Assembly (NCBI GenBank): GCA_964398665.1
Contig: CAYNNN010000002.1
Span: 929-64,928 of the forward strand
Direction of reading: 5' to 3'
Length of the DNA: 64,000 bases
Source of the DNA: an uncultured Gammaproteobacteria bacterium
Lineage (GTDB): Bacteria > Pseudomonadota > Gammaproteobacteria > CAYNNN01
The notes below the pieces were generated by a model, which made no database searches, had not been told where the DNA came from, and worked only from the letters and a program-made list of their open reading frames with translations. Positions 11,091 to 58,284 of the stretch are shown one piece after another; within the stretch, counting starts at the first letter, position 1; every line of letters starts with the position of its first letter. Made by a program: the position numbers and the translations under genes.

Positions 11091-11159
11091 TTCAGGAGCC
11101 TGATTGCATTTTGGCCAACAATCCTTAAACTGGATTCATCCCCCCTCCCGGAGTCTGCC

Positions 11160-16870: not shown

Positions 16871-16883
16871 CGCATCCACTCCC

Positions 16884-40959: not shown

Positions 40960-41004
40960 GACTGGATTGGAACAGGGTTTGTGGAGTTAGGGCGGGAGCA
41001 GGCA

Positions 41005-44000: not shown

Positions 44001-47000
44001 CGAGGCAGAACCTGACTGGGTGTCGCCTGTGCTGGCGGATCCGGCACCGGTCCTGGAATGGGAACTACCGGCACCGGTTGCAAAACCCGAGGCTGTAGCA
44101 CCAGCCGACGAGGCGTTGCCCGAGCCACTGGCGACAGATACAGTGGTCCAGCTGCCAGTGCCGTCAGAAATCCCGCTGCCCCCTACGCATACGGCAGAGG
44201 AACCACCGGCCATTCCGGAAGCGGCTGTGGAGGAAGTTCCGGCACCTGTCGCTACCCCGTTGCCTGCAACCGCGCTTGATGACCTTGATGAATCGGATGC
44301 CCGGCCTGAGCCGCTGCTGATGGACGAAGCACTGTATGAAATATTCAGCATCGAAGCAAAGGCGCACCTCGCGGTCATCGAAGAATTTTTACTCCATTGT
44401 CAACAGTCGGCAGTGCCATGCCGAGGCAGTGATGTCCTGGTGCGGGCCATTCACACTCTGCATGGCAGTGCCCATATGGCCGGCGCCAAGGATATTGCTG
44501 AAATCAGCGGGGGGCTGGAATCGGCATTACGTGGCTACATTGCTCACCAGATGTCGTTTGATGCAGCGTTACTGGGCTTGCTGGAGTCCGGTCTGGAAAA
44601 GGTGGCGCAGGCTTTGGCCTGTATCAACCAGCCTGACAAGCGCCCGCCCAATGCCCAGCCCTTGATAGAAGCGCTGCGCCGGTTCAACGAGGCGATGCAG
44701 GCCAGGCTGGCAGGTGCCAACGCTGTGACCACAGCCCCTGCCGAGGTGCAGCCAGTGGCTGAACATGCTGTGGCCAGTGGCCTGCCACCCGCACCAGATG
44801 AAGAGTTGCTGGCGATTTTCCTGAGCGAGAACCAGGATATCCTTGAGGCACTGAATACGGCGGTCGATGCCTGGCGGGATCGCACCCATGACAGCCTGCT
44901 GGCGATGGAACTACAACGTCTGCTGCATACCCTCAAGGGAAGCGCGCGCCTGGTTGGTTTTCAGTCCATGGGGGATCTGGCTCAGGCATTGGAAGGGTTG
45001 GTGGGTGCTTCGATCCAGCGACATGAACCATTGCCCCAGCAAGCACTGGCGCTGGTTCATACTGCCCTGGAACGGCTGGCCGATATGCTAGACGAGATCG
45101 CCCAGGGTGCCACGCCCGGCCCGGCGGATACCCTGGTAGCCGAGCTATATGCGCAGGGCGTGACACCAGTCACTTATGAAGAAACGGCCCTGGCACCGGT
45201 GGTGGTGCCTGAGGGCACACTACCGGATGAAGCAGCGGCGGTCATACCCACAGCAGAAGAAACGGCCCTGGCACCGGTGGTGGTGCCTGAGGACACACTG
45301 CCGGATGAAGCAGCGGCGGTCATACCCACAGCAGAGGACGCCGTCTTGGCGGATACCGAAGCTGCACCGCCATCAAACTGGCCTGAAGCACATGGCGTTG
45401 ATGGCCAGCTGTCTGATGCAGTTCCGGATGATCGGGCACAGGCAGCATTGCCCGAGGCTGAGCAGATGCCTGAGCCGGTATTGCCGCCGGTGGTCGAGTT
45501 GCAGCCCGTGGTCCAGGAAACCCATCCGGTGGCGGCATTGGAAGAACCCGTTTCCGAATGGGTTATGCCTGAATCTGCCCCCGCCTTGCGGGCCATGCCG
45601 GAATCCGGGGCTGAGGCACTACCCGAACCGATGGCAGAAGCGGTACCTCCGTCCGATGCAGCGACCGAAGCAACACCCGCACCATCAGCACAGCTGACGG
45701 ATATACCGGAAGCCTGGGTGCCGGCGGAAGTGACGCCAGCGGTGATGTCGGCAGGATCCCCCTTATCCGTCGGGGGTACGCAGCCCCTGGCCTTGCCAGG
45801 CGAGGATACTGAGGTTGAAACCTATGATACGGCACTCATCGAAGTGTTCCAGGATGAGGGCAAGGAGCTGCTGGACGGCCTGGATCAGGCCTTTGGTCTA
45901 TGGCGTGCCGAACCCGAGGATACCACACAGCACGCCTTGATTCAGCGCCTGCTGCATACCCTGAAGGGCAGCGCTCGCCTCGTGGGCCTGATGGGTGTAG
46001 GCGACCTGACCCATGCCCTGGAAACGCTGATCATTGAGGTCCAGCAAGGCCGCAAACCCGCAGACGCCGAAATCATGCACCTGGCCCAGCAGGCCCTGGA
46101 TCACTACGCACTGACCTTCGAGCGTCTGCTACGGGGTGAGACCCTATATCGTCCCCAACGTCTGATCCAGGCGCTCGAACAGCAGGGCCAGAGCATCGTT
46201 ACCGCACCCACGCCTGCACCGGTACCACCACCGGTCATCCTGCCGGTCGTCGAGGTCGAGGGCGATCTGGACGGTGAATATGACGTCAATCTTATCAATA
46301 TCTTCCTTGAAGAAAGTCGTGATATTCTGGATAACCTTGAACCAGTCTTTACAGCCTGGTGTGAAATCCCTCAGGATGCTGCGGTCAGCGCCCAGTTCAA
46401 GCGTGCCCTGCACACGCTGAAAGGGGGGGCACGCCTGGTCGGAATCACTTCCCTGGGTGATCTGAGTCACGCGCTGGAAACGGCAGTCAACACGGTAGGC
46501 GAACAGAATCTGGCCGTGGATCCACCCTTGCAAGCTTTGTTACGTCGGACACTGGACGTCATCAATGCGGCCCTGGAAGTGGTGGCACGCGGTGACCGTG
46601 CCCGTCGCCCGTCGGCCCTGATCCATGCCTTGGAGCGGATTGGCCAGGCTGCGGATGCCGAAGTCACCCAAGTGCCGGTTCCAAGCAAATCCGTACCCCC
46701 CCCGGAGGCTGTGCGGCCCCAGCCGGCAGCCGAACCCGCCACACCCACCGCTGCGTCCGCCACCCGTACTCCGCAAGAGCAAGTGCGGGTGCGGGCCGAC
46801 CTGCTGGATAACCTGGTCAATTTTGCTGGTGAAATCAGCATCTACCGTGCGCGTTTGGAGCAACAGTGGAGTCTGCTGAAATTCAACCTGGCAGAATTTG
46901 AACAGACCACGCGCCGCCTGCGGGAACAATTGCGCAAGATGGAGCTGGAAACAGAAGCTCAGGTCTTGTTCCGTTACGAACGTGAAGGTGGACATGAGAA

Positions 47001-48612
47001 ATTTGCCGAGTTCGATCCGCTGGAAATGGATCGCTACTCCACGATGCAACAACTTTCCAGGGCACTGAGCGAAAGCGTCTCGGATCTGGATAACCTGCAT
47101 CGGCTCATGAGCGACAGCGGGCGCGATGCCGAAACCTTGCTGCTGCAACAATCGCGGGTCAATACCGAGTTGCAGGAAGGACTGATGCGCACCCGCATGG
47201 TGCCCTTTGCCAGTCTGGTACCCCGGCTCCGGCGTCTGGTGCGGCAAACTGCCGATAGCGTCGGGAAGCGGGCTGAACTGGATGTCATTGGAGCCGAAGG
47301 TGAAATGGATCGCACCATTCTGGATAGAATCACGGCACCGCTGGAACATTTGCTGCGCAATGCCCTGGCGCACGGGGTGGAAACACCGGCTGACCGGGTT
47401 GCGGTCGGTAAGCCGGAGGTGGGCAAAATCACGCTGTTGCTGGCACGTGAAGGTGCTGAAATCGTCATCGAGATCGCTGATGACGGACGTGGCATAGATC
47501 CGACAGCCATCCGCCGCAAGGCCATCCAGATGGGGTTGCTGCGCCCGGAGACGGTGATTAGTGAAGTGGAATTGATTCAGTTCATTCTGGAATCCGGCTT
47601 CAGCACCGCCAAAGATGTGAGCCAGATCGCGGGCCGGGGCGTCGGGATGGACGTGGTGAACAGCGAGATCAAGCAAATGGGCGGCACGCTGGGCATCAAA
47701 TCCCAGGTTGGCGTAGGCAGCCGGTTCATCATCAACCTGCCGCTGACCCTGGCCATCAACCAGGCCATCATGGTCTATGTCGGGGAAGACGTCTTTGCTG
47801 TTCCGCTGGCCGCCCTGGAAGGCATCATCCGGGTTTCCCAGCAGGACCTGCTACGTTGTTACGAAAGCGACCGCGAGCATATCCAGTATGCAGGCAAGGA
47901 CTATCAGGTCAAACACCTGGGTAGCTTGCTGGGCACGATGGAAAACAAGTTCCCCGAACAGAAACGCTGGTATCCCCTGCTGCTGGTGCGCAGTGGTGAT
48001 TACCGCGTTGGTCTGCATGTGGAGGGCTTGCTGGGCAACCGCGAAGTGGTGATCAAGCCGGTCGGGCCGCAATTGAGTACGGTGCGCTGGATTTCAGGCG
48101 CGACCATTCTGGCCGATGGCCGGGTGGTCTTGATTCTTGATATCGGCACCATCTCCCGGATGCGCACCACGGTGCGGACCGTGGCGGAAGCCGACACGCG
48201 GGTACCGGCCGTTGAGGAGGCACCGCCGGTTCGCCAGGTCAAGGTACTGGTGGTGGACGACTCCATCACGGTGCGTAAGGTGACGGGTCGGGTACTGGAG
48301 CGCTACGGGATGGAAGTCATGACCGCCAAAGACGGTATCGAAGCCCTGACCACGCTCCAGGAATATATCCCGGACATCATGTTGCTGGATATTGAAATGC
48401 CGCGCATGGACGGATTTGAACTGGCCCGGAACATCCGTAATGCCGAACATCTGAAGCATATCCCCATCATCATGATCACCTCGCGTACGGGAGACAAACA
48501 CCGGCAACGGGCTATGGAGCTGGGTGTGAACGACTATATCGGCAAACCCTTCCAGGAAGCTGATTTAATCTCACATATCAATGCCTTGGTTGGAAGTGGG
48601 GCTACAGCATGA
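41005..48612 (+). CDS. chpA: Chemosensory pili hybrid histidine kinase ChpA/PilL, 2,537 aa, with multiple Hpt-like domains, CheA catalytic core, CheW domain and C-terminal receiver
   Basis: At least six Hpt-like cores (FHTLKGSGRMAGA, FHTLKGSGRMVGA, IHTLHGSAHMAGA, LHTLKGSARLVGF, LHTLKGSARLVGL, LHTLKGGARLVGI). HATPase motifs (GRGIDP, GRGVGMDVV, GVGSRF), CheW-like region and REC (VLVVDDSITVRK...MLLDIEMP). Start trimmed to the ATG at 41005. Confidence 0.9.
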   Translation: MSHGALNWVKKELDETLKLASQTLEEYVEGGRDAALLQQSALHLHQAYGTLQMVEVYGAAQLAEELEITLQALARGELGQAGHDAYEVLARAVLQLQEYLNRVHAGQADTPAVLLPLLNDLRALRGVALLSEGALFPLDLTPLETQPPGVKPARLAAPQAAAMVKRLRTFYQLGLLGWLRGQEMDKNLGQLEQSLLQLAQLATQASVAHLWWISAGLVEALRRRGLDSTTAVRVLLGQIDRQIRRLSEENEAALVREPATGLYKNLLYYLAQARVQSTLITQIKQLFALDTLLPGIAQLESARNNLLSPDAGVMHTVLTAIKEDMAGVKDGLETFARQTQAPEALRPLLDALRKVSDTLGLLGYGALRRRVQQQILRLQQLMEAGGEIDETALMQVAGELLYVESSLGGAPTAVHAANTAVYASHEDEPLVPEAEFQTVRAVTMREVMLDLSKAKDGVIAFNSTGQKELLELAPQYLRGVRGVMEMMELGRAAAVVLRIADYIQQELLTAAHLTPKVVEWVAEALSGVEYYLETVQQQLPDHTDSLGQAEARLANLTQGPVSEATVSPPPVPTAPVVQAPPTISAGAAVPQPEVTPTSTLPVWPADQIDEEIFDIFLEEANEVVASLQTYWPRWRADAEQRDALVTVRRGFHTLKGSGRMAGAHGLGELAWAAESLLNRVLDGTLTASQMTGQALDAVVDLLPQMLEALARHQAVPDQAPVLAAHVQALVRGEASTLAPAQRDTGLVVTEAAPGPDLAPDTTTLAAAPIAPDEVDTLIVDLDSGAAEAPVTGPEATAEPEAAPPAVTAPPVPQPLVLDVDDEILEIFLEEAQEVVGTLNEYFPQWRADTQDHEALTTIRRGFHTLKGSGRMVGAKVLGELAWSIENMLNRVLDGSIQPGPVLMATIEASISAFPVLLESLQARLQATLDVEPIAQRAHALSRGEVVAEPVVAPPVSTPVAASDVSPVTEPVPVAEPEFIWDVPAESVPATLPVADVAPAEAEPDWVSPVLADPAPVLEWELPAPVAKPEAVAPADEALPEPLATDTVVQLPVPSEIPLPPTHTAEEPPAIPEAAVEEVPAPVATPLPATALDDLDESDARPEPLLMDEALYEIFSIEAKAHLAVIEEFLLHCQQSAVPCRGSDVLVRAIHTLHGSAHMAGAKDIAEISGGLESALRGYIAHQMSFDAALLGLLESGLEKVAQALACINQPDKRPPNAQPLIEALRRFNEAMQARLAGANAVTTAPAEVQPVAEHAVASGLPPAPDEELLAIFLSENQDILEALNTAVDAWRDRTHDSLLAMELQRLLHTLKGSARLVGFQSMGDLAQALEGLVGASIQRHEPLPQQALALVHTALERLADMLDEIAQGATPGPADTLVAELYAQGVTPVTYEETALAPVVVPEGTLPDEAAAVIPTAEETALAPVVVPEDTLPDEAAAVIPTAEDAVLADTEAAPPSNWPEAHGVDGQLSDAVPDDRAQAALPEAEQMPEPVLPPVVELQPVVQETHPVAALEEPVSEWVMPESAPALRAMPESGAEALPEPMAEAVPPSDAATEATPAPSAQLTDIPEAWVPAEVTPAVMSAGSPLSVGGTQPLALPGEDTEVETYDTALIEVFQDEGKELLDGLDQAFGLWRAEPEDTTQHALIQRLLHTLKGSARLVGLMGVGDLTHALETLIIEVQQGRKPADAEIMHLAQQALDHYALTFERLLRGETLYRPQRLIQALEQQGQSIVTAPTPAPVPPPVILPVVEVEGDLDGEYDVNLINIFLEESRDILDNLEPVFTAWCEIPQDAAVSAQFKRALHTLKGGARLVGITSLGDLSHALETAVNTVGEQNLAVDPPLQALLRRTLDVINAALEVVARGDRARRPSALIHALERIGQAADAEVTQVPVPSKSVPPPEAVRPQPAAEPATPTAASATRTPQEQVRVRADLLDNLVNFAGEISIYRARLEQQWSLLKFNLAEFEQTTRRLREQLRKMELETEAQVLFRYEREGGHEKFAEFDPLEMDRYSTMQQLSRALSESVSDLDNLHRLMSDSGRDAETLLLQQSRVNTELQEGLMRTRMVPFASLVPRLRRLVRQTADSVGKRAELDVIGAEGEMDRTILDRITAPLEHLLRNALAHGVETPADRVAVGKPEVGKITLLLAREGAEIVIEIADDGRGIDPTAIRRKAIQMGLLRPETVISEVELIQFILESGFSTAKDVSQIAGRGVGMDVVNSEIKQMGGTLGIKSQVGVGSRFIINLPLTLAINQAIMVYVGEDVFAVPLAALEGIIRVSQQDLLRCYESDREHIQYAGKDYQVKHLGSLLGTMENKFPEQKRWYPLLLVRSGDYRVGLHVEGLLGNREVVIKPVGPQLSTVRWISGATILADGRVVLILDIGTISRMRTTVRTVAEADTRVPAVEEAPPVRQVKVLVVDDSITVRKVTGRVLERYGMEVMTAKDGIEALTTLQEYIPDIMLLDIEMPRMDGFELARNIRNAEHLKHIPIIMITSRTGDKHRQRAMELGVNDYIGKPFQEADLISHINALVGSGATA
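45178..45333 (+). repeat. Near-perfect in-frame 78-bp tandem duplication (2 copies) inside a chpA linker
   Basis: Unit 1 at 45178-45255 and unit 2 at 45256-45333 differ at ~2-3 nt. They encode EETALAPVVVPE(G/D)TLPDEAAAVIPTA twice. Confidence 0.85.
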
Positions 48613-49115
48613 TCAGTCAGCGTCCCAGTCTGGCAGCTGCGGTGGCAAAAGCAGGCGCCCTACGCTGTCTGTTGCTACCCATAGAAGACGGACATTTGAT
48701 TCTGCCCAATGCGGCAGTGCGGGAAGTCTTGGGCTACCGGCAGGTACAGCCGCTGGCCGGCGCTCCCAACTGGCTGCAAGGCATGTTGACCTGGCATCAG
48801 CAACGTGTGCCGGTTGTGAGCTTTGAGGCTCTGTGTGGCCGGGCTTGGCGTGGCCAGGGAGAACGCAAGCGGATCGTAATTTGTGCGGCCCTACGCGGCA
48901 AAGCCGATCTGGGTTTTTTCGGGATTGTGGCGGCAAACAACCCCAAATTACTGAAAACAGAGGAAGAATCAATCAAGCCCATTACTGGCCACACAGCGCA
49001 TGCCCCGGTCGTACTGCAATGGGCCTTGGCCTTTGGCGAAGAAGTGATGATTCCCGACCTGGAACGCATTGAAGACTTGCTGCGAGAACAGCGCCGGGTT
49101 GGTGTGAAATTATGA
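48609..49115 (+). CDS. chpC: CheW-like protein ChpC
   Basis: ATGA overlap with the chpA stop. CheW-like domain. Position as in pilGHIJ-chpA-chpC clusters. Confidence 0.6.
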   Translation: MISQRPSLAAAVAKAGALRCLLLPIEDGHLILPNAAVREVLGYRQVQPLAGAPNWLQGMLTWHQQRVPVVSFEALCGRAWRGQGERKRIVICAALRGKADLGFFGIVAANNPKLLKTEEESIKPITGHTAHAPVVLQWALAFGEEVMIPDLERIEDLLREQRRVGVKL

Positions 49116-49166: not shown

Positions 49167-49241
49167 GGGCGATTAGCTCAGCGGTAGAGCACTGCCTTCA
49201 CACGGCAGGGGTCGCAGGTTCGAACCCTGCATCGCCCACCA
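49167..49241 (+). tRNA. tRNA-Val (anticodon CAC), with encoded CCA
   Basis: Manual fold. Acceptor GGGCGAT/ATCGCCC, D-stem GCTC/GAGC, anticodon stem CTGCC/GGCAG with loop TTCACAC (anticodon CAC), T-arm GCAGG-TTCGAAC-CCTGC, discriminator A. Close to E. coli tRNA-Val. Confidence 0.85.
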
Positions 49242-49425
49242 TCCATATCAATGCGTTATCGCCTTATTCTTGCTGCGGGTAGCGCGTTACCGTGACTGGA
49301 TCGTGACTCAAACGCCCTATAGCCCGCACTCGTGGAACTATAGGCCGTGCTACACCACTCCATGGCCCTGTCGCCCCCGTGCGGTGCGATTTTTGTATTG
49401 ATTCAATGAATTATAATGGTATTTT

Positions 49426-50022
49426 ATGATACGTTCTAGCCGTCTGGGCTTGGGGCTGGCCTTGCTGGGCCTGCTGCTGACGATTCCCTACGGCCTGGAC
49501 GCATTGGGACAGTGGGTCCGTCTGCAGGAATCCCTAGACCGGGTGGATGCGCTGTTGCTGCTACCCGGAGACCGCAACACGGCCCCTCAGGCTGTTGCCC
49601 GCTTCTATCACCAAGGCTTGACGCATCGGGTGCTGCTGATTGCCCGTCAGCCTACCCGACTGGAACGACTGGGGTTGCGTCCCCCACGACATGAGCGCCA
49701 GCGCCAGGCGCTGCTGGCGCTGGGGGTTTCAGCTTCAGACATTGACGTGTTGGGGCCACCGGTCAGCCACGACCCCGCCAGCGGCAGCGTGCTGGCCCGT
49801 TGGGCCAAGGCGCAGCTTCAACCACAGCGGGTGCTGGCGGTGACCGCTGAGCCTTGGGGACGCTTGTGGCGCCACGATCTGCGCCAGGGTTTGGGGCCAA
49901 CATCACTGGAATTGGCCCTCTGGAGTGCCCCGTCCAGCCGCTTTGGCCCGCACTGGTGGCGAAGTCGGCATGGCCTGATGGCGTATTTCGATGCTTTTGT
50001 GTTAGGGTTGCGCCGCCTTTAG
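49426..50022 (+). CDS. Hypothetical membrane-anchored protein, tentatively DUF218/YdcF(ElyC)-like
   Basis: N-terminal TM or signal segment. LLLPGDRNTAPQAVARFYHQGLTHRVLLIA loosely resembles the DUF218 N-terminal block that is clear in the paralog at 52179. Weak. Confidence 0.35.
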   Translation: MIRSSRLGLGLALLGLLLTIPYGLDALGQWVRLQESLDRVDALLLLPGDRNTAPQAVARFYHQGLTHRVLLIARQPTRLERLGLRPPRHERQRQALLALGVSASDIDVLGPPVSHDPASGSVLARWAKAQLQPQRVLAVTAEPWGRLWRHDLRQGLGPTSLELALWSAPSSRFGPHWWRSRHGLMAYFDAFVLGLRRL

Positions 50023-50042
50023 CGCAGTGCTGATGAGTTGCC

Positions 50043-51788
50043 ATGAGTCTTATTCTGGGTCTGAATGCCTTTCACGGCGATGCCTCCGCCTGTCTTGTCC
50101 AGGACGGCGAACTGCTGGCCGCAGCTGAAGAAGAACGTTTTTGCCGTATCAAGCACTGGGCCGGATTCCCCAGCCAGGCGATTCGTTATTGCCTGGCACA
50201 GGCCGGCGTGGAACTGCACCAGATCGATCACATTGCCCAAAACAGCGATCCGGGCGTGCATTGGCCGCGCAAGCTCGCCTACGCCCTGCTGCGACGGCCC
50301 AGCCTGGGCCTGCTGCGCGACCGCCTGCGCAATCGTCAGCAGCGGGCCAGCCTGCCTGCCCTGTTTGCCCGGCATTTTCCCGATCAAACGGTCCGGGCCC
50401 AGTGGCATACGGTAGAGCATCATTATGCCCACCTGGCCTCGGCCTTTCTGGTCTCACCCTTTCGGGAAGCCGTGGTCGTCTCGGTAGATGGCTTTGGTGA
50501 TTTTGCCAGCGCAGCCTGGGGCGTCGGACACGGTAATGATCTGCGCCTGGACGGCCAGGTTTATTTTCCGCACTCCCTGGGAATGTTTTATCAGGCCCTG
50601 ACCCAGTACCTGGGTTTTCCCAATTATGGCGATGAATACAAAGTGATGGGCTTTGCACCCTATGGCCAGCCCCGTCACGTCGCGGCCCTGCGCCAGGTGC
50701 TGCGCTTATTGCCAGACGGCAGCTTTCGGCTCAATCTGCGTTATTTCCGTCATGGCCGTGAGCAGGTTCCCTATCGCTGGGAAGATGGCAGTCCTCAGGT
50801 CGGAACCTTGTATACCCCGGCGCTGGAACAACTGCTGGGGCCTGCCCGGCAGCCGGGTACTCCATTGACGGAACGCCATCAGGATCTGGCGCATTCCGTA
50901 CAGGCGGTCTACGAAGAAGCCCTGTTTCACCTGCTACGTGCCCTGCACCGACGTTACGGCCTCGACGCCGTGGCGCTGGCGGGTGGCTGTGCCATGAATT
51001 CGGTCGCCAACGGCAAAATCACCGTGCAGACACCCTTTCGCCAGGTCTATGTCCAGGCTGCTGCCGGGGACGCCGGGGGGGCCTTGGGCGCTGCTTATGC
51101 CGTGGCACAACGCCTGGGCGAGGCCGCCCGATTTTATCTCGAACACGCCTATTGGGGACCAGCGGCAGACAGCGAGGCCATCGCGGCCTTGCTTGCGGAT
51201 CAGACTGCGGCCTTGCAGGCTGCCGGTTGTTACTGGGTCCAGCTACCAGAGGCCGATCTGGTGGCTCATACCGCGCAAGCCCTGGTACAAGGCAAGGTCG
51301 TCGGCTGGTTTCAAGGTCGCATGGAATGGGGGCCCCGCTCCTTGGGCGCACGTTCGATTCTGGCTGACCCACGCCGCAGCGACATGAAGGACATTCTCAA
51401 TCACAAGATCAAGCGCCGGGAGTCATTTCGGCCCTTTGCCCCGGCCATCCTGCGCGAAGCGACAGCTGAGTGGTTTGAACTGGATCTGCCGGTACCGTTC
51501 ATGAGCCAGGTCTTGACAGTGCGGCCCGAAAAACGCGCATTGATCCCGGCAGTCACCCACGTGGATGGCAGTGGCCGGCTACAAACGGTCGAACGATTGA
51601 GCAATCCGCGCTACCATGAGCTTATCCGGCAATTTGGCACGCTCACCGGGGTACCCATTTTGCTTAATACCTCGTTTAACGAAAATGAGCCGGTCGTCTG
51701 TCGGCCTCAGGAGGCCCTGGACTGTTTTTTACGCACCCAGATGGACGTGCTGGTTCTGGGTGATTGGTTGATTCGGCGGGGCACCTGA
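50043..51788 (+). CDS. Carbamoyltransferase (NodU/CmcH family)
   Basis: N-terminal ILGLNAFHGDASACLVQDGELLAAAEEERFCRIKH (YgjD/Kae1-like fold of NodU) and C-terminal carbamoyltransferase domain. 581 aa. Confidence 0.85.
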   Translation: MSLILGLNAFHGDASACLVQDGELLAAAEEERFCRIKHWAGFPSQAIRYCLAQAGVELHQIDHIAQNSDPGVHWPRKLAYALLRRPSLGLLRDRLRNRQQRASLPALFARHFPDQTVRAQWHTVEHHYAHLASAFLVSPFREAVVVSVDGFGDFASAAWGVGHGNDLRLDGQVYFPHSLGMFYQALTQYLGFPNYGDEYKVMGFAPYGQPRHVAALRQVLRLLPDGSFRLNLRYFRHGREQVPYRWEDGSPQVGTLYTPALEQLLGPARQPGTPLTERHQDLAHSVQAVYEEALFHLLRALHRRYGLDAVALAGGCAMNSVANGKITVQTPFRQVYVQAAAGDAGGALGAAYAVAQRLGEAARFYLEHAYWGPAADSEAIAALLADQTAALQAAGCYWVQLPEADLVAHTAQALVQGKVVGWFQGRMEWGPRSLGARSILADPRRSDMKDILNHKIKRRESFRPFAPAILREATAEWFELDLPVPFMSQVLTVRPEKRALIPAVTHVDGSGRLQTVERLSNPRYHELIRQFGTLTGVPILLNTSFNENEPVVCRPQEALDCFLRTQMDVLVLGDWLIRRGT

Positions 51789-51827
51789 TCCCGGGTGCTT
51801 GAAATCAGAGAGTTGCTGGAGATCATC

Positions 51828-52178
51828 ATGTGGCATAAAGCGTTAATGGGTTTGAGTCTGATTCTGGGCGTCAGCTTTGCCGCCCCGGCCACAGCCGGCT
51901 GGCCCGGCATTTACTGGTGGCAGAAGGAAGTCGGTGGCTCGGTACGCGCCTGCGTATCACGGGCCAAAAGCGTCTATGACGAAGAGGGCTTTTACGATAT
52001 CAAGGTCGATAGTCATGAGACCAGCGATGTCGGTTCGGTCTGGGCACATACCGATAACGAAGCTTCCTACATCATCTGCCGCAAGACGGACAGTGGCGTG
52101 GTTGCCACCGTGGTGGTCAGCGGTGACAATAACAAAAATATCAAGCGCTACCGCGACCTGCTCCGCGACGCGATGTAG
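51828..52178 (+). CDS. Small secreted hypothetical protein (116 aa). By eye it looks less GC-rich than its neighbours.
   Basis: Signal peptide (LMGLSLILGVSFAAPATA). Its stop abuts the GTG start of the next gene. No recognisable family. Confidence 0.4.
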   Translation: MWHKALMGLSLILGVSFAAPATAGWPGIYWWQKEVGGSVRACVSRAKSVYDEEGFYDIKVDSHETSDVGSVWAHTDNEASYIICRKTDSGVVATVVVSGDNNKNIKRYRDLLRDAM

Positions 52179-52802
52179 GTGTTTTGCCTGACGGTACGCC
52201 TTGTGCTCAGTCTGGGTGTGGCCAGCCTGCTGGGCGCAGGCTGGCTGCTGGCTGTACCTCAAGCGCTGGCGCGTGGCTGCCTGTTGCTGGAAACACTGGG
52301 TAATACCGGGGTCTGCGTAGCCTTGGCAGCACCGCTGCTGGCCAAGGCCCAGCCTGCCCGCCCCGCTGACGTGATCGTCATTCTGGGCCGTGATGGCCGG
52401 GAACGCATGAATCTGGGCGCAGAACTCTACCTGGCCGGCTTTGCGCCCCGGATCGTGCTGTTCAATTCCAGCCTGCACTATCTGCCCCATGCAGCGCAGC
52501 TGCGCCCGGCCTTGCTGCAAGTGGATGGCCCCCGTGATACCTGGGCTGAAGCCCGGCATACGGCCCGACTGGCCCGTCAGTACGGCTGGCACCGGATTCT
52601 GGTCATCTCCGACCCACCCCACCTGCGCCGGGTGCATTGGCTGTTCAAAAAAGAGTGTGCAGACAAAGCTGAGCTGGTTCTGGTCGCCACCCGGCCAACC
52701 TGGTGGCAGTGGCCGTCCTGGTGGCACTCGCAGTACGGTGCCGGTTATGTCCAGCATGAACTCGCCAGCCTGCTGTATCACCAGTTCCGGGTCGGCGGAT
52801 GA
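52179..52802 (+). CDS. DUF218 (YdcF/ElyC-family) protein
   Basis: ADVIVILGRDGRERMNLGAELYLAGFAPRIVL ... ILVISDPPHLRRV matches the DUF218 core. GTG start immediately after the upstream stop, and ATGA overlap with the next gene. Confidence 0.65.
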   Translation: MFCLTVRLVLSLGVASLLGAGWLLAVPQALARGCLLLETLGNTGVCVALAAPLLAKAQPARPADVIVILGRDGRERMNLGAELYLAGFAPRIVLFNSSLHYLPHAAQLRPALLQVDGPRDTWAEARHTARLARQYGWHRILVISDPPHLRRVHWLFKKECADKAELVLVATRPTWWQWPSWWHSQYGAGYVQHELASLLYHQFRVGG

Positions 52803-54004
52803 AACTGATTTTTATCAATCGGTACTTTTACCCCGACACCGCCCCGACCAGCCAACTCCTGGCTGACTTGGCCTTTGCGCTGGCGGCGCACGGTCATGAA
52901 GTCACCGTGCTGACCAGCCGTCAGCTTTATACCAATTCCCAGGCCCGGCTACCAACACAAGAAGCCATCGCCGGCGTTCAGATACGCCGAGTCTGGAGCA
53001 GCCGCTTTGGCCGTGCCGGACTCCTAGGCCGTGCCGGGGATTATCTGACTTTTTATTTCAGCATCACGCTCGCGCTGCTCCGTATCGCCCGACCCGGCCT
53101 GTTGGTGATTCCCAAAACCGACCCCCCCCTAATGGGCGTGCTGGCGGCCTGGATCTGTCGCCTGCGTGGAGCTACTTGCCTGCATTGGTTACAGGATATC
53201 TTCCCCGAGATTGCCGAAGCGCTGGGCTTGCGGCTAGGATTTTGGGGCCGCTGGCTGGCCGCCCGGCGCGATGCTTCGCTCAAGCACAGCCTGGGCGCAG
53301 TGGTGATTGGGCAGGATATGCTGGCTCGCCTGCAAGCCCGAGGCATTAGGGCGGATAAACTCCATGTGATTCCCAACTGGGCCGACGCCACAGCCCTGCA
53401 ACCACAATCCGGCCCCCACCCACAACGCACGGCCTGGGGCTGGGAGACCCGACTGGTGGTGGGTTATGCCGGCAACCTGGGCCGTGCCCATGAGCTGGAT
53501 ACCCTGATCACAGCCCTGATAGCCCTGGCTGATGACCCTCGCATCGGCTTTGTCTTCAGCGGGGGCGGGGCCGGCTGGCAACGATTGCGCCGTCTGCAAG
53601 CGCAGCACGGCTGGACACATGTGCGGTTTCTCCCCTATCAGCCTCTGGAAAAGCTGGCGGCTTTGCTGAGCCTCAGCGATGTCCACTTAGTGAGCTTGCG
53701 CGCCGGGCTGGAAGGCTGGCTGGTGCCGAGCAAGTTTTACGCCAGCCTGGCCGTGGCCCGACCCGTCCTCTATCTGGGACCTGCCAACAGCGAGGTAGCC
53801 CAACAAGTACTTACCTACCATTGTGGGTGGCAGGTCACACCCGGCCAGTCCGAAGCGCTGTTACACTGCCTGCGCCAGCTGGACCAGGCGACCTGTCAGG
53901 CAGCGGGACAGCGGGGCCGGGCCGCCCTGCTGTCCCACTGGGACAAGCCGCACGCCCTGGCGCGCTGGCAACATTTATTGGCACAACTGGAGCAAACCGC
54001 ATGA
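52799..54004 (+). CDS. Glycosyltransferase family 4 (GT-B, group 1)
   Basis: KLIFINRYFYPDTAPTSQLLADLAFALAAHGHEVTVLT is a GT4 N-domain. C-domain has the EX7E-like region (GWLVPSKFYASLAVARPVLYLG). Confidence 0.8.
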   Translation: MKLIFINRYFYPDTAPTSQLLADLAFALAAHGHEVTVLTSRQLYTNSQARLPTQEAIAGVQIRRVWSSRFGRAGLLGRAGDYLTFYFSITLALLRIARPGLLVIPKTDPPLMGVLAAWICRLRGATCLHWLQDIFPEIAEALGLRLGFWGRWLAARRDASLKHSLGAVVIGQDMLARLQARGIRADKLHVIPNWADATALQPQSGPHPQRTAWGWETRLVVGYAGNLGRAHELDTLITALIALADDPRIGFVFSGGGAGWQRLRRLQAQHGWTHVRFLPYQPLEKLAALLSLSDVHLVSLRAGLEGWLVPSKFYASLAVARPVLYLGPANSEVAQQVLTYHCGWQVTPGQSEALLHCLRQLDQATCQAAGQRGRAALLSHWDKPHALARWQHLLAQLEQTA

Positions 54005-55077
54005 CCCTGGACATCAGTCTCAATTTCTGGATCGCCCTGGGCCTGAGCGGCTTCTTTTGCCTGGCCCTGCAACCCCTGGCCCTGCATTGGGGCCTCGTGG
54101 ACGAACCGGATGCGCGCAAACGTCACCACGGCCCTGTACCGCTGGTCGGTGGCCTGGCGATGGTGTTGGCGCTGTTCTTTGCCCTGATGCTCACTGACCT
54201 GCCCTTGACCCCCTGGCGGCCCCTGTTTGTGGGCATCGCCATCCTGCTGCTGGTAGGATTATTCGACGATGCCCATGAACTGCACCCGCGTAACCGGCTC
54301 CTGGCCCAGATCGGCGCAGCTCTGCTGATGGTGTTCTGGGGTCAGGTGTACCTGACGGATTTGGGTGATTTAGGGGGCATGGGGCATCTGGAACTGGGCT
54401 GGCTGACAGTGCCCGTGACGGTATTTGCGGTTGTCGGGGTCATCAATGCGGTCAACCTGAGCGATGGCATGGATGGTCTGGCCGGCAGTCTGGCCCTGAT
54501 CAGCCTGGGCAGCCTGGCGGTGGTCGCAAGGGATGCCGGACAGACTGCGCCCCTGACCCTGTTACTGTTGTTTGGCGCCGTGATCCTGGGCTTTCTGGCC
54601 CTTAATTTGCGCAGTCCCTGGCTGGCGCGAGCACAGATATTCATGGGCGACGGTGGGAGCCTGATGTTGGGGTTTGTCATTGCCTGGTTTGCAGTCGCGC
54701 TGACGCAGGGCGAACAGCGGGTCCTAGCGCCCGTGACCGTCTTATGGCTCTGTGCCATCCCGTTGTTTGATACGGTAGCCAGCCTGTTGCGCCGGGCATT
54801 GAACCGGCGGGCGCTGATGCAGCCGGATCGGGGCCATTTTCATCATATCCTGCTGGCTGCCGGGCTTACGGTGCCCCAAACTTGGGGCGTCATGGTCAGC
54901 CTGGCCCTGCTCTGCGCCCTGTTTGGCCTGCAGGGCCATTATGCCCACTGGCCGGAACCCGTGATGTTTGGACTATTTTTGGCTGTATTTGCGCTATTTT
55001 TTGCCATCGTCCGCCGGGCCTGGCGAGTCAAATGCCTGCTGGGCCGGGTCCTGGCCCACGGTGATGGCCATGATTGA
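54001..55077 (+). CDS. Polyprenol-phosphate sugar-1-phosphate transferase (WecA/MraY superfamily, GT family 4 polytopic)
   Basis: Ten or more TM helices, LVDEPDARKRHHGPVPLVGG, NAVNLSDGMDGLAG (DDxxD-like) and a cytoplasmic HHILL motif region. ATGA overlap with the GT4 gene. Start trimmed to 54001. Confidence 0.8.
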   Translation: MTLDISLNFWIALGLSGFFCLALQPLALHWGLVDEPDARKRHHGPVPLVGGLAMVLALFFALMLTDLPLTPWRPLFVGIAILLLVGLFDDAHELHPRNRLLAQIGAALLMVFWGQVYLTDLGDLGGMGHLELGWLTVPVTVFAVVGVINAVNLSDGMDGLAGSLALISLGSLAVVARDAGQTAPLTLLLLFGAVILGFLALNLRSPWLARAQIFMGDGGSLMLGFVIAWFAVALTQGEQRVLAPVTVLWLCAIPLFDTVASLLRRALNRRALMQPDRGHFHHILLAAGLTVPQTWGVMVSLALLCALFGLQGHYAHWPEPVMFGLFLAVFALFFAIVRRAWRVKCLLGRVLAHGDGHD

Positions 55078-55432
55078 GCGTTTCCAGATCCGGGTGCGCG
55101 GCCATTGCATGATGCCAGTGCTGGCCGAAGGTGCCGAGGTCACCGCTGAACGGCGGGCCTGCTATTGGCCGGGTGATATTCTGGTTATCTGGACATCCGC
55201 CCATCAGCTGCGCGTCCATCGCCTGATCGCCACCTATCCCCACCCGACAGGCTGGCGCTGGATGACTCAGGCTGACGCCGCCATCCGGCCTGATGCGGCC
55301 GTCACCCACACCCAGATTCTGGGCCGGGTTCAAGGCGTACGGGTGCCCTGGCAGTGGCGCCTGTGGGCAACGGGTCGGGGCGGGTTAGCCGTGCTGCGGC
55401 GCCTACGGGCCAAGTGGCAACCGGCCCGATGA
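55064..55432 (+). CDS. S24/S26 (signal-peptidase/LexA-like) fold protein in which the nucleophile Ser of the G-x-S-M-x-P-T-L motif is replaced by Cys (GHCMMPVL)
   Basis: RVRGHCMMPVLAEGAEVTAERRACYWPGDILVIW aligns with the SPase/LexA 'GDSMxPTL ... GD.l.v' box. ATG overlaps the wecA-like stop. 120-123 aa. Confidence 0.45.
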   Translation: MAMIERFQIRVRGHCMMPVLAEGAEVTAERRACYWPGDILVIWTSAHQLRVHRLIATYPHPTGWRWMTQADAAIRPDAAVTHTQILGRVQGVRVPWQWRLWATGRGGLAVLRRLRAKWQPAR

Positions 55433-56340
55433 ATTTTGGCACGCAATTTCTGACCTGTCCGGATTTATTCCCGGCCCGACTGGCAGGAGAAAGCTGGGGG
55501 ATGGCGCGCTGTCATCTCCATCTCGCTGGCTCAACTTACGCCCTCACTGGCCTGAGTACTGCCCAACACGCCGCCCTGCAGACCCGCTTTGGCGCACTGT
55601 GCCTGGAGGCCGATACACCGGCAGTAGCCGAGCTACGGGTATATCGCGCTGATCCTGAAGATTTCTTAGGCATCCCTTATCCCGGCTGGCCCTACAGCCT
55701 GGATAGCCGCTGGCAGCCGCAGGCGGTAGAAATGGCCGGTCTGGGTCTGATGGCCCGCCTGGAGCTGGCGCCCGCCTGGCGCGGGGGCCTGTGGGTAGCC
55801 CAGGCAGATGGGCAATTGATCACCGATGGTACGCTGGAAAACGTCTTGCGGGTGCTGGTTGCCTACCGCCTGCTGGCTCAAGGTGGCCTATTGCTGCATA
55901 GCGCCGGAGTGGTGCGCCACGGTCAGGCCCTGGTGTTCTTCGGCCAGTCCGGCGCCGGGAAAAGTACCATTTCTCGCCTGAGCTTAAGCACTGGGCACAC
56001 GGTGCTCAGCGATGACATGAACGCCCTGGTCTGGCGTGACGACCGGTTCTGGGTGGAAAAACTGCCATTTGCCGGCGATCTGGGCCAAAATGCCACGGAT
56101 GCAGGCTGTTATCCCCTGCACGGCCTGTACCGGCTCATCCAGGCGCCCACACCGGCCTTGCGCGGGCTGACGCCTGCCCAAGCGGGCGCCAGGCTCCTGG
56201 CCTGTGCACCCTATGTCAACCAGAATCCGCACCAGCTCGACGCGCTGCTCACCGGGATTAACCGGATAATCAGCGTGGTAACGGTGTCGGAACTGGAATT
56301 TGCCCTAAACTCGCATTTCTGGGGTCTTTTTGAGGCTTGA
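55429..56340 (+). CDS. HprK-related kinase (HPr kinase/phosphorylase C-terminal-domain homolog) of the PqqD/rSAM-associated type
   Basis: P-loop LLHSAGVVRHGQALVFFGQSGAGKSTIS is HprK-like. ATGA overlap with the upstream gene. Followed by PqqD and rSAM/SPASM genes. Confidence 0.6.
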   Translation: MNFGTQFLTCPDLFPARLAGESWGMARCHLHLAGSTYALTGLSTAQHAALQTRFGALCLEADTPAVAELRVYRADPEDFLGIPYPGWPYSLDSRWQPQAVEMAGLGLMARLELAPAWRGGLWVAQADGQLITDGTLENVLRVLVAYRLLAQGGLLLHSAGVVRHGQALVFFGQSGAGKSTISRLSLSTGHTVLSDDMNALVWRDDRFWVEKLPFAGDLGQNATDAGCYPLHGLYRLIQAPTPALRGLTPAQAGARLLACAPYVNQNPHQLDALLTGINRIISVVTVSELEFALNSHFWGLFEA

Positions 56341-56341
56341 C

Positions 56342-56605
56342 ATGCACTATCACACCGTTTCCAGCGTGCGTTACCGCAAATTGCTGGATGAGGGGCTGGT
56401 CATTCAACAGGCGCGGGGTGAAGTCCTGGCCCTGAATGCGACCGGCTTGCGGGTGCTGGAACTGCTGGATGCCGGGCTGGCGCTAGAGGCAGTTGCAACC
56501 CAATTGGCCACCGAGTTTGCCATCACGCCCGCCGCTGCGCACACCGATGTGCAAGCTTACGTCGCAGAATTACAGGCCGCAGGCGTGCTGGCACCCGTGA
56601 CATGA
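56342..56605 (+). CDS. PqqD-family protein (RiPP recognition element / peptide chaperone)
   Basis: ~88 aa. The 'LVIQQARGEVLALNATGLRVLELLDAGLALEAVATQLATEF' pattern is typical of PqqD/RRE. Stop overlaps the rSAM start. Confidence 0.6.
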   Translation: MHYHTVSSVRYRKLLDEGLVIQQARGEVLALNATGLRVLELLDAGLALEAVATQLATEFAITPAAAHTDVQAYVAELQAAGVLAPVT

Positions 56606-57648
56606 GTGCGTTCCAGGCAGCCACAGCCAGGGCCTGGGAACAGAATGTCCTGCTCAACGTGTTGCTGGAACTGACCTATCGCTGCAACCTCGACTGTTTT
56701 TTTTGCTATAACGACTTGAATCAGCAAGGCCAGCCGCTTAGCCTGACACAATATCTGCGTCTGTTCGATGATCTGCAAGCCCTGGGTACCCTGAACCTGA
56801 CCCTTTCCGGTGGTGAACCGCTGGCGCACAAGGATTTTTTTGCCCTCGGCGCCGCAGCACGCGCACGGGGTTTCGTGATCCGGGTCAAATCCAACGGCCA
56901 TGCCCTGACCGGCAAGCTGGCCCGGCGTCTGCAAGCCGAAGTAGACCCGTTCATCATTGAGATCAGCCTGCACGGTGCCACTGCTGCGACCCACGATCGA
57001 CAAACCCGGGTTTTGGGCAGTTTTGCCCAACTCCAGCGCAACTTGCAGGAATTACGTGCCTTGGGGCTACGGGTCAAGCTCAATGCCCCGGTCACGCGCT
57101 GGAACGAGGGCGAGCTGCCCGAGATGTACGCGCTGGCGGATACATTGGGCCTGCGGATCGAATTTGATCCGCAGATTACCCTGCGGGATGACGGTGATTC
57201 TGAACCGCTGAGCATCAGTCCCAGCGCAGCCGGGGTCGCTCGGCTACACGCCCTGCACGCCGCACGTGCAGCTACAGCCGCGCCAGCCGCACCGTCGGCA
57301 CCAACGGTCAGCAAGCACTGCGGGGCCGGGTCTGCCGTCGTGGCAGTGGACCCTTACGGGAATGTGTACCCGTGTGTGCAATGGCGCCGCCGGGTGGGCA
57401 ATCTGCATCAGCAATCCATCCGGGACATCTGGCTGGGGCCTGACAGTGGCCTAGGCGAAATTCGCGCTCAAAATCAGGCGGTCAAACAGATGCTGGCCCA
57501 GCTGGGCCAGCCAACCCTGGCCTTTTGCCCCGGTTCTGCCGAACAGCAGACCGGCAGCCCGACTCAACTCTATCCTGCCGCCCGTCTGGCCTTGCAGGTG
57601 CGTCAGCTCGCCTCATCCCAAGCCTCGCACCCACACCCAGACGCCTAG
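56602..57648 (+). CDS. Radical SAM enzyme with C-terminal SPASM-type auxiliary cluster domain (peptide-modifying maturase class)
   Basis: CNLDCFFC (Cx3Cx2C) at residues ~28-35, GGEP motif, and a C-terminal Cys-rich segment (CGAGSAVVAVDPYGNVYPCVQW ... CPGS). Confidence 0.8.
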   Translation: MSAFQAATARAWEQNVLLNVLLELTYRCNLDCFFCYNDLNQQGQPLSLTQYLRLFDDLQALGTLNLTLSGGEPLAHKDFFALGAAARARGFVIRVKSNGHALTGKLARRLQAEVDPFIIEISLHGATAATHDRQTRVLGSFAQLQRNLQELRALGLRVKLNAPVTRWNEGELPEMYALADTLGLRIEFDPQITLRDDGDSEPLSISPSAAGVARLHALHAARAATAAPAAPSAPTVSKHCGAGSAVVAVDPYGNVYPCVQWRRRVGNLHQQSIRDIWLGPDSGLGEIRAQNQAVKQMLAQLGQPTLAFCPGSAEQQTGSPTQLYPAARLALQVRQLASSQASHPHPDA

Positions 57649-58284
57649 GCCGATGACCAGCAAGCCAGCGGCCCGACGGGCCCAGGGCCGCTGGGCCCAG
57701 GATGCCAGCTGCATCCCGAAAGCACCCAGAGCCAGCAGGGTCGGCAGCGTGCCCAGACCAAAACTGAGCATCAACAGGCCACCTGCCCAGGCACTACCCG
57801 CACTCAAGCTCCAGATCAACATGCTATACACCAGGCCACACGGTAAAAACCCCCAGAGCAGGCCGATCCCAAAAGCGGTCCGGCCATTGCGGATCGGTAA
57901 CCAGGCCCGGCCCAGGGGCTGAATCCGACGCCAAAGCCAGACCCCACCCTGCTCCAGATAACGCAAACCCTGCCACCAGCGACCCAGATACAAGCCCAGC
58001 GCAACCAGAAACAGGGCCGCGAGCAGTTCCAGACTACGCTGGGCCTGATGCAGCCATACAGTTGCTGCCAGCCCCTGCCCGGCTGCCCCAGCCAGGGCAC
58101 CCAAGACGGTGTAAGTGGTCAGGCGTCCGAGGTTATAAGCGCCGTGCAGGAACCAGCGAGTCTGCGGCTGCGCGGGGGCGGCGAAACTGAGCGCCGTGAC
58201 GATGCCGCCACACATGCCCACGCAATGCACTCCGCCGCTCAGGCCCGCCAGCCAGGCGCCCAGGAATAAGGGCCACTCAAACAT
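57613..58284 (-). CDS. DsbD_2 / TauE-SafE-like polytopic membrane protein (HCxxMCGG motif)
   Basis: GGVHCVGMCGG motif and ~6 TM helices. Immediately downstream of mfd on the minus strand. Confidence 0.5.
   Translation of the reverse strand: MFEWPLFLGAWLAGLSGGVHCVGMCGGIVTALSFAAPAQPQTRWFLHGAYNLGRLTTYTVLGALAGAAGQGLAATVWLHQAQRSLELLAALFLVALGLYLGRWWQGLRYLEQGGVWLWRRIQPLGRAWLPIRNGRTAFGIGLLWGFLPCGLVYSMLIWSLSAGSAWAGGLLMLSFGLGTLPTLLALGAFGMQLASWAQRPWARRAAGLLVIGLGVWVWVRGLG

Follow-up and report, generated by a model that had tools for sequence, protein, structure and literature searches.

The DNA analysed here, referred to as the window, is a stretch of 64,000 nt from an uncultured Gammaproteobacteria bacterium (contig CAYNNN010000002.1, positions 929 to 64,928, assembly GCA_964398665.1). 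At positions 55064–57648 this window encodes, in intact form, a four-gene cassette for peptide maturation that is widespread and has as yet no name. All four genes lie on the forward strand. The first (55064–55432) encodes a putative 122-aa soluble peptidase of the Sec11/SipW type (S26B-like) with Cys at the nucleophile position, as suggested by a family profile matched against SEC11A/C, and the second (55429–56340) a 303-aa HprK-related P-loop protein of the ScmC family, assigned through PF27840 on an identical protein. These are followed by a discrete PqqD-type recognition element (RRE) for peptides made by the ribosome and then modified post-translationally (RiPPs; 56342–56605, Pfam PqqD, E = 7e-12) and by an enzyme of the radical SAM (rSAM) type with an abbreviated SPASM (Twitch-like) domain (56602–57648; Pfam Radical_SAM and SPASM). 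A first-pass annotation made from the sequence had described a two-gene rSAM/PqqD cassette at this site; the peptidase and kinase-like genes had been overlooked.

Species-representative genomes were scanned for relatives of the rSAM enzyme, yielding 535 loci, 80 of which were fetched, and the window proteins were searched with BLAST against the six-frame open reading frames (ORFs) of 86 loci, that is, the window and 85 others (WIN denotes the window locus and L-numbers denote related loci, L086 being a contig identical to the window). Close relatives of the rSAM enzyme were present in at least 535 species-representative genomes, mostly Acidobacteriota. Homologues of approximately 60% identity came from Competibacteraceae, Betaproteobacteria and Polyangia and most of all from Acidobacteriota, Thermoanaerobaculia included. 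The peptidase, ScmC, PqqD and rSAM genes were found in 72, 81, 71 and 84 of the 86 loci, respectively, in constant order and tightly packed, and the peptidase gene, wherever present, was immediately 5' of the ScmC gene. Gene calls with precomputed Pfam annotation on related contigs gave the same order, namely Peptidase_S24 (weak), ScmC (PF27840), PqqD and Radical_SAM/SPASM. The genes preceding the cassette in the window were far more restricted: those for a carbamoyltransferase (4/86), a 116-aa secreted protein (3/86), a DUF218 protein, a GT4 glycosyltransferase and a WecA-like transferase occurred in only 3–4 of the 86 loci, which were the window and its closest relatives. The closest of these, L004/L005, shared the same operon and an rSAM enzyme 78% identical to that of the window. 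The cassette can also be split, because in a metagenome-assembled genome of Competibacteraceae (L089, equal to L017; 10001–11508) the rSAM gene adjoined a precursor gene without an adjacent peptidase, ScmC or PqqD gene, and FabA and FabB were encoded upstream. Full-text literature searches, the coverage of which was incomplete, returned no description of the cassette or of its peptide, and those on SynChlorMet, ScmC, HprK with radical SAM, Thermoanaerobaculia RiPPs and PqqD with exopolysaccharide (EPS)/PEP-CTERM likewise gave nothing about either.

Invariant elements of the peptidase family were G-x-[C/S]-M-x-P, H-R, D and D. Its nucleophile position was occupied by Cys in 60 of 68 sequences, including the window copy, and by Ser in 8, a natural Ser/Cys swap within one S24/S26-fold family that has a His partner residue. 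The family profile matched human SEC11A/C best (7p2p, E = 9e-6), in an alignment that pairs the catalytic Ser, His and Asp and places the family motifs on SGSMEP, VHRV and GDNNAVDD of those proteins. The candidate catalytic residues of the peptidase are C18, H55, D74 and D80. Pfam Peptidase_S24 was detected in 16 of 18 family members, and the 122-aa protein of the window itself had no Pfam match. For the ScmC-type protein, annotations precomputed for its orthologues and for the 303-aa protein of L086, which is identical to it, listed PF27840 without any mark of weakness; matches to HprK_rel_B, HprK_rel_A and ScmC were weak and all far under the NCBIfam cut-offs. The window copy retained the Walker A sequence G-x-S-G-A-G-K-x-T as well as S-D-D. 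From these similarities we infer that the 122-aa protein is probably the leader peptidase of the cassette and that the ScmC-family protein may be a peptide kinase.

The PqqD protein scored 46 bits against the Pfam PqqD cut-off of 23.4, and its best NCBIfam match was the lasso PqqD chaperone NF033530, at 41.8 bits and below the cut-off of 70. The rSAM enzyme matched Radical_SAM (E = 1.7e-18) and SPASM (E = 5e-8) and contained exactly six conserved Cys residues, C28, C32 and C35 together with C240, C258 and C309. The first three form the CX3CX2C site of the SAM cluster (C28-x3-C32-x2-C35), which was invariant in 21/21 sequences. Since the second three comprise only the CX13GX4C...C part of the auxiliary domain as defined for SPASM and Twitch proteins (PMC6231123), the domain is of the single-cluster, Twitch-like kind. 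SkfB is a sactisynthase with such a Twitch domain and a single auxiliary cluster, and in CteB and MoaA the auxiliary cluster has an open coordination site (PMC6231123). The nearest solved structures were PqqE, BlsE, MoaA, CteB, SkfB and SuiB, and a fold search with the rSAM model returned the SPASM/Twitch group without discriminating a peptide from a sugar substrate. The enzyme scored under the cut-off of every NCBIfam rSAM family, and the only models passed by the cassette proteins of the window were the Pfam domain models ScmC, PqqD, Radical_SAM and SPASM.

The putative substrate of the cassette family was recognised when all ORFs of 25 codons or more in the related loci were clustered all against all. 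One small-ORF cluster emerged, with a median length of 66 aa, in 77 loci and on the strand opposite the rSAM gene; the two genes converge, the stop of the small ORF lying approximately 24 nt beyond the rSAM stop. A profile of these putative precursors matched 77 of the 85 loci other than the window, every one with E < 1e-8, and three of the misses were contigs that ended too soon. The first-pass annotation had proposed a comparative search for a conserved small ORF beside the cassette, and this is what such a search found, including a leader/core architecture. Precursor genes were 53–65 codons long and aligned as ...[KR][KR]-P-[YW]-x-x-P-R-I-L-S-R-E-P-L-E-A-[VM]-A-A-V-C followed by approximately 20 residues of the type A-P-S-P-P-A-K-G-N-P-G-L-C-P-S-G-P-I-S-S, the leader motif being Y-x-x-P-R-I-L-S-R-E-P-L-E-A-x-A. 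The leader of the family can be written as RRPYERPRILSREPLEAVAA. The core contains a Lys and two Cys and ends in Ser; in the consensus, the first Cys is followed by x(8-14)-K-x(4-8)-C-x(3-7)-S-stop. P19, E25, E28 and C34 were invariant and K45 and C53 nearly so. Ser was the last residue in 120/120 members from the database and in 131 of the 133 copies from loci (a contig end truncates one of the other two), and exactly two Cys followed the E-x-L-E motif in 120/120. Small residues occupied the A-x-A-A junction immediately before the first Cys. Codon-position entropies of 0.73, 0.59 and 1.26 indicate that the small ORF is a translated gene, and its invariant residues used several synonymous codons.

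At least 1199 clusters of this precursor (~53–65 aa) were present among 5.8 billion proteins, all annotated as 'hypothetical' and none with a Pfam domain; six representative precursor peptides likewise had no family in Pfam or NCBIfam. A reciprocal, peptide-centred scan of JGI metagenomes with a narrower peptide alignment yielded 75 loci, and a convergent rSAM gene was found downstream in most of those with at least 1.3 kb of downstream sequence. Gene callers made no precursor call in L090 (11110–11325, reverse strand) or L091 (11093–11314, reverse strand), and in L089 (11221–11508, reverse strand) the precursor was replaced by a spurious 32-aa call. Because public gene calls miss the precursor, annotation-based mining would overlook the family. 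Linkage between peptide and cassette was not universal: L050, L054 and L084 had cassettes without a peptide, and in L147 and L153 no cassette was present within 6 kb of the peptide gene. In L073 two precursor copies were seen, at 11125–11328 and 16686–16907 (both on the reverse strand), one adjoining the rSAM gene and the other 5.5 kb off.

The window lacks this precursor. Where 77 of the 85 other loci have the convergent precursor gene, the window has a convergent gene for a DsbD_2-family membrane protein (57613–58284, reverse strand; gene call and Pfam match on the identical contig L086), which overlaps the 3' end of the rSAM gene. When the precursor profile was searched against the six-frame, stop-to-stop translation of the 64-kb window, there was no match (best E = 0.12), and a regular expression for the leader motif found nothing in the window. 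The contig flanks, 7.6 kb to the left and 2.3 kb to the right, also held no precursor, while the controls L089–L091 were detected. Thus, the statement in the first-pass annotation that no recognisable precursor is encoded in 49242–57650 holds for the whole window and for both flanks. The same operon in L004 had no peptide within 10 kb, and the downstream neighbours of the two loci differed, being MlaD and an ABC protein in L004 vs DsbD_2 and Mfd in the window.

Despite the missing precursor, the cassette of the window has the properties of a maintained set of genes. The four reading frames were intact in both the window and L004. Ratios of nonsynonymous to synonymous divergence (dN/dS) relative to L004 were 0.17 (peptidase), 0.12 (ScmC protein), 0.14 (PqqD) and 0.08 (rSAM enzyme). 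They fall within the range seen for the adjacent glycan genes and are approximate because dS was saturated (1.6–2.1). All family-invariant residues were kept by the rSAM enzyme and the peptidase of the window (both were included in the alignments that defined the invariants), and of the positions at least 90% conserved in peptide-bearing cassettes 13/14 were kept in PqqD and 49/53 in the ScmC protein. Judged from these comparisons, the cassette is under purifying selection, and its enzymes look fit for the same kind of substrate as those of the family.

The cassette forms the 3' part of a run of ten forward-strand genes (49426–57648) that follows a tRNA-Val(CAC) gene (49167–49241, forward strand; ARAGORN), the upstream boundary of the operon. 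The first gene (49426–50022) encodes a 198-aa protein without a Pfam or NCBIfam match; its orthologue in L004 was 66% identical (dN/dS 0.13) and was preceded there by an extra DUF218 gene. Next are genes for a NodU-type carbamoyltransferase (50043–51788; Pfam Carbam_trans_N, E = 5e-55, and Carbam_trans_C, E = 2e-71), for the 116-aa secreted globular protein (51828–52178), which was the candidate precursor of the first-pass annotation and is judged not to be one, and for the DUF218 protein (52179–52802; PF02698, E = 2.6e-11). The last two genes before the cassette encode a WcaI-like GT4 glycosyltransferase (52799–54004; Pfam Glyco_trans_4_4 and Glycos_transf_1; 155 bits for the NCBIfam WcaI subfamily, below the cut-off of 276) and a polyprenyl-phosphate sugar-1-phosphate transferase of the WecA/MraY family (54001–55077; Pfam Glycos_transf_4, E = 6e-38; 269.5 bits for TIGR02380 WecA, below the cut-off of 326). 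As had been noted at first pass, there is no intergenic space from 52179 to 57648: from the 116-aa ORF to the rSAM gene, successive gaps were 0, -4, -4, -14, -4, +1 and -4 nt, and the TAG stop of the 116-aa ORF (52176–52178) directly precedes the GTG start of the DUF218 gene. The overlap of 14 nt is that between the WecA-like gene and the peptidase gene. Non-coding sequence within 49242–57650 was limited to 49242–49425, one gap of 20 nt and one of 39 nt, and 49242–49425 contained, by reading of the sequence, only ORFs of 13 and 15 codons. A promoter and terminator scan was uninformative (4 vs 2.4 expected and 11 vs 7.4 expected). The idea of a tRNA-associated island was dropped, as the 3' end of tRNA-Val had no second, att-like copy in the window. 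Directly upstream of the tRNA gene (40981–49115) were a 2543-aa ORF and an overlapping 168-aa ORF; the former resembles, by eye, a hybrid histidine kinase of the CheA/ChpA type, with repeated Hpt-like segments (HTLKGS) and a C-terminal receiver.

Other loci placed the cassette beside different glycan-type genes, as counted in 51 loci with full flanks. Genes for Wzy_C (34/51) and a TPR protein (36/51) were co-directional with and directly upstream of the peptidase gene, and NTP_transf_5 (30/51) was further upstream. In L090 (5404–8770), for example, NTP_transf_5, Wzy_C (O-antigen ligase/polymerase type) and a small TPR protein preceded the peptidase with overlapping stops and starts. On the strand of the precursor and directly upstream of it, 26–28 of the 51 loci had a gene for a gingipain-family Peptidase_C25 of 1100–1540 aa, as at L090 11326–15957, L091 16249–20286 and L001 11283–14612 (all reverse strand), behind which 20 loci had an EPS polyprenyl glycosylphosphotransferase (TIGR03025, 393 bits vs a cut-off of 295). 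No Wzy_C, TPR, NTP_transf_5, Peptidase_C25 or EPS transferase gene of these kinds was present in the window. The cassette is therefore found with membrane glycan genes in unrelated gene sets, and this coupling may be functional. In many acidobacterial loci, a further set of genes, lasso-like and without a recognisable cyclase, was found at a distance of a few kb from the cassette. It consists of another PqqD, an HprK_rel_A-like kinase, NTP_transf_5 and a genuine lasso B2 protease that scored 63 bits against the NF033537 cut-off of 33 (L091 13596–16330, L003 13615–16343 and L090 672–2111). In L050, an ORF resembling a lasso-type precursor (RRPYVSPRLTELGDLRSITLGGSPGFGD...) was located at 12137–12334 (reverse strand) beside the PqqD gene of the lasso-like set.

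We consider it probable that the window holds an orphan but functional copy of the cassette, the cognate precursor of which is encoded elsewhere in the genome. The first-pass annotation had listed an unlinked precursor among its possibilities, and of those this one is best supported, by the intact and selected cassette and by the unlinked states seen in L050, L054, L084, L147 and L153 and the split cassette of L089; no precursor was found in the approximately 74 kb covered, and its existence in this organism is something we infer. As the cassette is selectively maintained and the residues of the family are kept, the substrate is most likely a peptide of the same family encoded at another site. 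In the window lineage, the cassette would have been joined to the 3' end of the WecA/GT4/carbamoyltransferase/DUF218 operon and the adjacent precursor gene would have been lost. In the pathway we propose for the family, the PqqD protein would bind the Y-x-x-P-x-I-L leader motif, the rSAM enzyme would cross-link the core, probably through the two invariant Cys, the kinase would modify the invariant C-terminal Ser, and the peptidase would cut off the leader at the A-x-A-A junction. The two invariant Cys of the core make thioether cross-links the simplest assumption for the product of the rSAM enzyme. In lasso clusters, the HprK-family kinases PsmK and PadeK phosphorylate the C-terminal Ser on its side chain, and this phosphate can receive a hexose from a nucleotidyltransferase (PMC6993621); the lasso leader motif YxxPxL is located at positions -17 to -12 (PMC10368454).

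Several observations weigh against an orphan cassette with an unlinked precursor. There was no precursor in the approximately 74 kb around the cassette, and adjacency of rSAM gene and peptide, the most conserved link of the family, is exactly the one that is broken here. Because both the window and L004 are without the peptide and have different downstream neighbours, loss of the peptide would be old and the cassette would have persisted since. The divergence ratios carry the uncertainty of saturated dS. All enzymatic roles are assigned by homology, we found no characterised member of the ScmC family, and the window proteins scored below the cut-off of every NCBIfam family that they matched.

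The main rival, which we regard as unlikely but the strongest of the alternatives, is that the cassette has been recruited to the glycan operon and now acts on another substrate, which could be a protein or peptide unrelated to the family or else a sugar intermediate of the lipid-linked or nucleotide kind. The peptidase gene shares those 14 nt with the WecA-like gene, an arrangement also seen in L004, and neither of the window-type loci has a peptide within 10 kb. Neighbours of the rSAM enzyme in sequence or structure include SPASM/Twitch enzymes that act on sugars (BlsE, BtrN and DesII), and in 30–36 of the 51 other loci the cassette is co-directional with and packed against membrane glycan-type genes (Wzy_C, NTP_transf_5), with the EPS sugar transferase nearby. 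However, a new class of substrate should relax or alter some of the positions conserved in peptide-bearing cassettes, and nearly all of these are kept in the PqqD, kinase, peptidase and rSAM proteins of the window; moreover, a PqqD protein and a leader-type peptidase have no obvious role on a sugar substrate. The suggestion at first pass that the target might not be a ribosomal peptide fails for the family, which has a cognate peptide, but may hold in the window lineage, in which translational coupling ties the cassette to a glycan operon.

A more speculative view, and one we think unlikely, is that the cassette and its peptide constitute a peptide-glycan conjugation pathway rather than a route to a free peptide natural product. 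The cross-linked peptide would be phosphorylated on its C-terminal Ser and then decorated or extended with a glycan built on polyprenyl phosphate, the glycan genes being those for WecA, GT4 and the carbamoyltransferase in the window and those for NTP_transf_5, Wzy_C, the EPS sugar transferase and the giant C25 peptidase in Acidobacteriota. If so, the recurrent translational coupling of the cassette with differing sets of glycan genes across phyla would be functional, and the operon of the window would be a lineage-specific rewiring.

It is very unlikely that the cassette is a decaying remnant that has lost its precursor and no longer functions. Absence of the precursor from both window-type loci would be expected of such a remnant, but the four frames have stayed intact in two lineages despite saturated synonymous divergence, the dN/dS values (0.08–0.17) resemble those of the neighbouring glycan genes, and every invariant catalytic residue is kept.

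Still less probable is that the cassette modifies the 116-aa secreted protein as its large and atypical precursor, as considered in the first-pass annotation. It is the product of the sole small gene of the operon and has been kept together with the cassette in the window lineage. As the first-pass annotation had remarked, the gene is less GC-rich than its neighbours (0.564 vs 0.61–0.66) and the protein is neither Gly- nor Cys-rich. It has two Cys. GC at third codon positions was 0.70 vs 0.66–0.73, equal to that of the neighbours, so the low GC reflects amino-acid composition and not foreign origin. Homologues of the protein were few (2 by word index, and 8 representatives in a set of 1.84 billion proteins), and among cassette loci it was restricted to the window lineage. 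Conservation extended along the whole protein, which has two invariant Cys and an N-terminal signal-like segment that runs to an A-x-A motif and then [D/G][W/Y]P, and compared to L004 it was 87% identical with a dN/dS of 0.034, the lowest of the operon. AlphaFold (AF2) predicted a compact beta-alpha-beta4-alpha domain over residues ~28–116 (confidence score pLDDT > 90), the signal-like segment at residues 1–22 being of low confidence, and since a fold search gave only weak, generic alpha/beta matches (TM score about 0.45–0.5), no function is assigned.

A 63%-identical homologue of the 116-aa protein was encoded between a carbamoyltransferase and a DUF218 gene, next to a convergent FixS gene and with the rSAM cassette absent, which places the 116-aa protein in the carbamoyltransferase/DUF218 module. 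On two metagenome contigs, L092 and L093, the carbamoyltransferase, a 117-aa secreted protein and DUF218 stood alone and were followed by convergent FixS. This suggests that the trio is a small, lineage-restricted envelope module. The 116-aa protein matched neither the precursor profile nor the leader motif and had no C-terminal Ser. Its presence in just 3 of 86 cassette loci, the homologue without a cassette, the full-length conservation and the confident globular model behind a signal peptide all speak against a precursor, and as modelled the protein is a folded periplasmic protein. The conserved short ORF of leader/core type beside 77 of 85 orthologous cassettes is the very finding that the first-pass annotation had named as decisive, and it refutes the large-precursor idea.

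Least credible of all is a precursor hidden in the operon and encoded by a short ORF, either one with a non-standard start or one in overlap with annotated genes: high-GC DNA has many alternative-frame ORFs, but the stop-to-stop profile search and the motif expression were negative, and synonymous-codon identity between the window and L004 showed no local dip in divergence of the kind that signals a hidden overlapping ORF and no significant local constraint (best of ~2000 sliding windows, 16/20; uncorrected p = 0.0025).

The puzzle of a missing precursor has thus become a lead to a large, unnamed RiPP-type family. Close relatives of its rSAM enzyme are encoded in at least 535 species genomes, and its peptides make up at least 1199 clusters, soil Acidobacteriota being the main source. 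The substrate peptide was previously unrecognised, being annotated as hypothetical, often missed by gene callers and absent from Pfam and NCBIfam, and it offers a concrete substrate for biochemistry on ScmC-type cassettes. The family combines features in an unusual mix, namely a lasso-type leader and PqqD, a Sec11-like Cys peptidase, an HprK-like kinase with an invariant C-terminal Ser, an rSAM enzyme with a single auxiliary cluster and a recurrent physical link to polysaccharide genes. The precursor family, newly defined here, and its unusual set of enzymes are what is chiefly of interest; the window is the exception that exposes the family, an orphan cassette in a glycan operon that reflects either an unlinked precursor or recruitment of the enzymes.

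Among named systems, SynChlorMet (Scm; TIGR04248–04251) also brings together a protein of the ScmC family with a homologue of PqqD and an rSAM/SPASM enzyme resembling PqqE. However, the window proteins scored far below its cut-offs (ScmC 25.3 vs 125, ScmD 18.8 vs 100, ScmE and ScmF 76.2 and 71.3 vs 400 each), and SynChlorMet has two rSAM enzymes where the window cassette has one. Unlike SynChlorMet, the cassette adds a Sec11-like Cys peptidase and has a cognate peptide family that is identifiable in orthologous loci; the Scm cassette described in TIGRFAMs is not known to have an identified precursor. Cut-offs of the HPr-rel-A system (TIGR04352, TIGR04353) were missed as well (HprK_rel_A 30.2 vs 200, PqqD_rel_X 21.6 vs 35), as were the curated cut-offs of GeoRSP.

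The lasso systems with HprK-type kinases (paeninodin, pseudomycoidin and BsfK) share several features with the cassette. Both have a discrete PqqD, that of the window having the lasso B1 chaperone as its best match, below cut-off; the precursor leader Y-x-x-P-x-[I/L] resembles the lasso YxxPxL; an HprK-related kinase accompanies a precursor ending in Ser, the residue that lasso kinases phosphorylate; and NTP_transf_5 genes are close by in many orthologous cassette loci. In contrast to lasso systems, the cassette is without a cyclase and without a B2 transglutaminase-type protease, leader removal being assigned to the S26B-like peptidase, it includes an rSAM enzyme, and its peptide core lacks the ring signature of Gly1 and Asp/Glu8-9. 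A tblastn search of the window with the B2 protein of a neighbouring locus found nothing, and Pfam and NCBIfam scans detected no Asn-synthetase-like gene (lasso C cyclase) in the operon.

Sactipeptide and ranthipeptide maturases (SkfB, CteB, StsB) are likewise RRE-dependent SPASM/Twitch rSAM enzymes that act on Cys-containing cores, and similarity of the window enzyme to StsB, SkfB and CteB was weak. The cassette differs in that its RRE is a separate protein, its rSAM enzyme has only three auxiliary Cys, its precursor family is unrelated and it includes a kinase and an S26B-like peptidase; a thioether in its product is a prediction. A discrete PqqD-type chaperone with an rSAM/SPASM enzyme is also found in the pathways for PQQ (PqqD/PqqE) and mycofactocin (MftB/MftC), and PqqE is the nearest solved structure, but scores were below cut-off (PqqE 82.8 vs 381, MftC 107.1 vs 265, PqqD 32 vs 46) and the cassette has no PqqA- or MftA-like peptide and no other genes of these pathways. 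The S26B signal peptidases SEC11 and SipW align with the cassette peptidase at G-x-S-M-x-P, V-H-R and G-D-x5-D, and differ from it in that the latter mostly has a Cys nucleophile (60/68), has by inspection no N-terminal membrane anchor and is smaller (122 aa). Of the generic features of an RRE-dependent rSAM RiPP pathway, the window has the CX3CX2C motif, the SPASM/Twitch domain and PqqD, and lacks a cognate precursor in the locus. Taken together, these sequence comparisons suggest that the cassette functions in the manner of an RRE-dependent rSAM RiPP pathway whose recognition and tailoring are lasso-like, and they place it in none of the named families tested.

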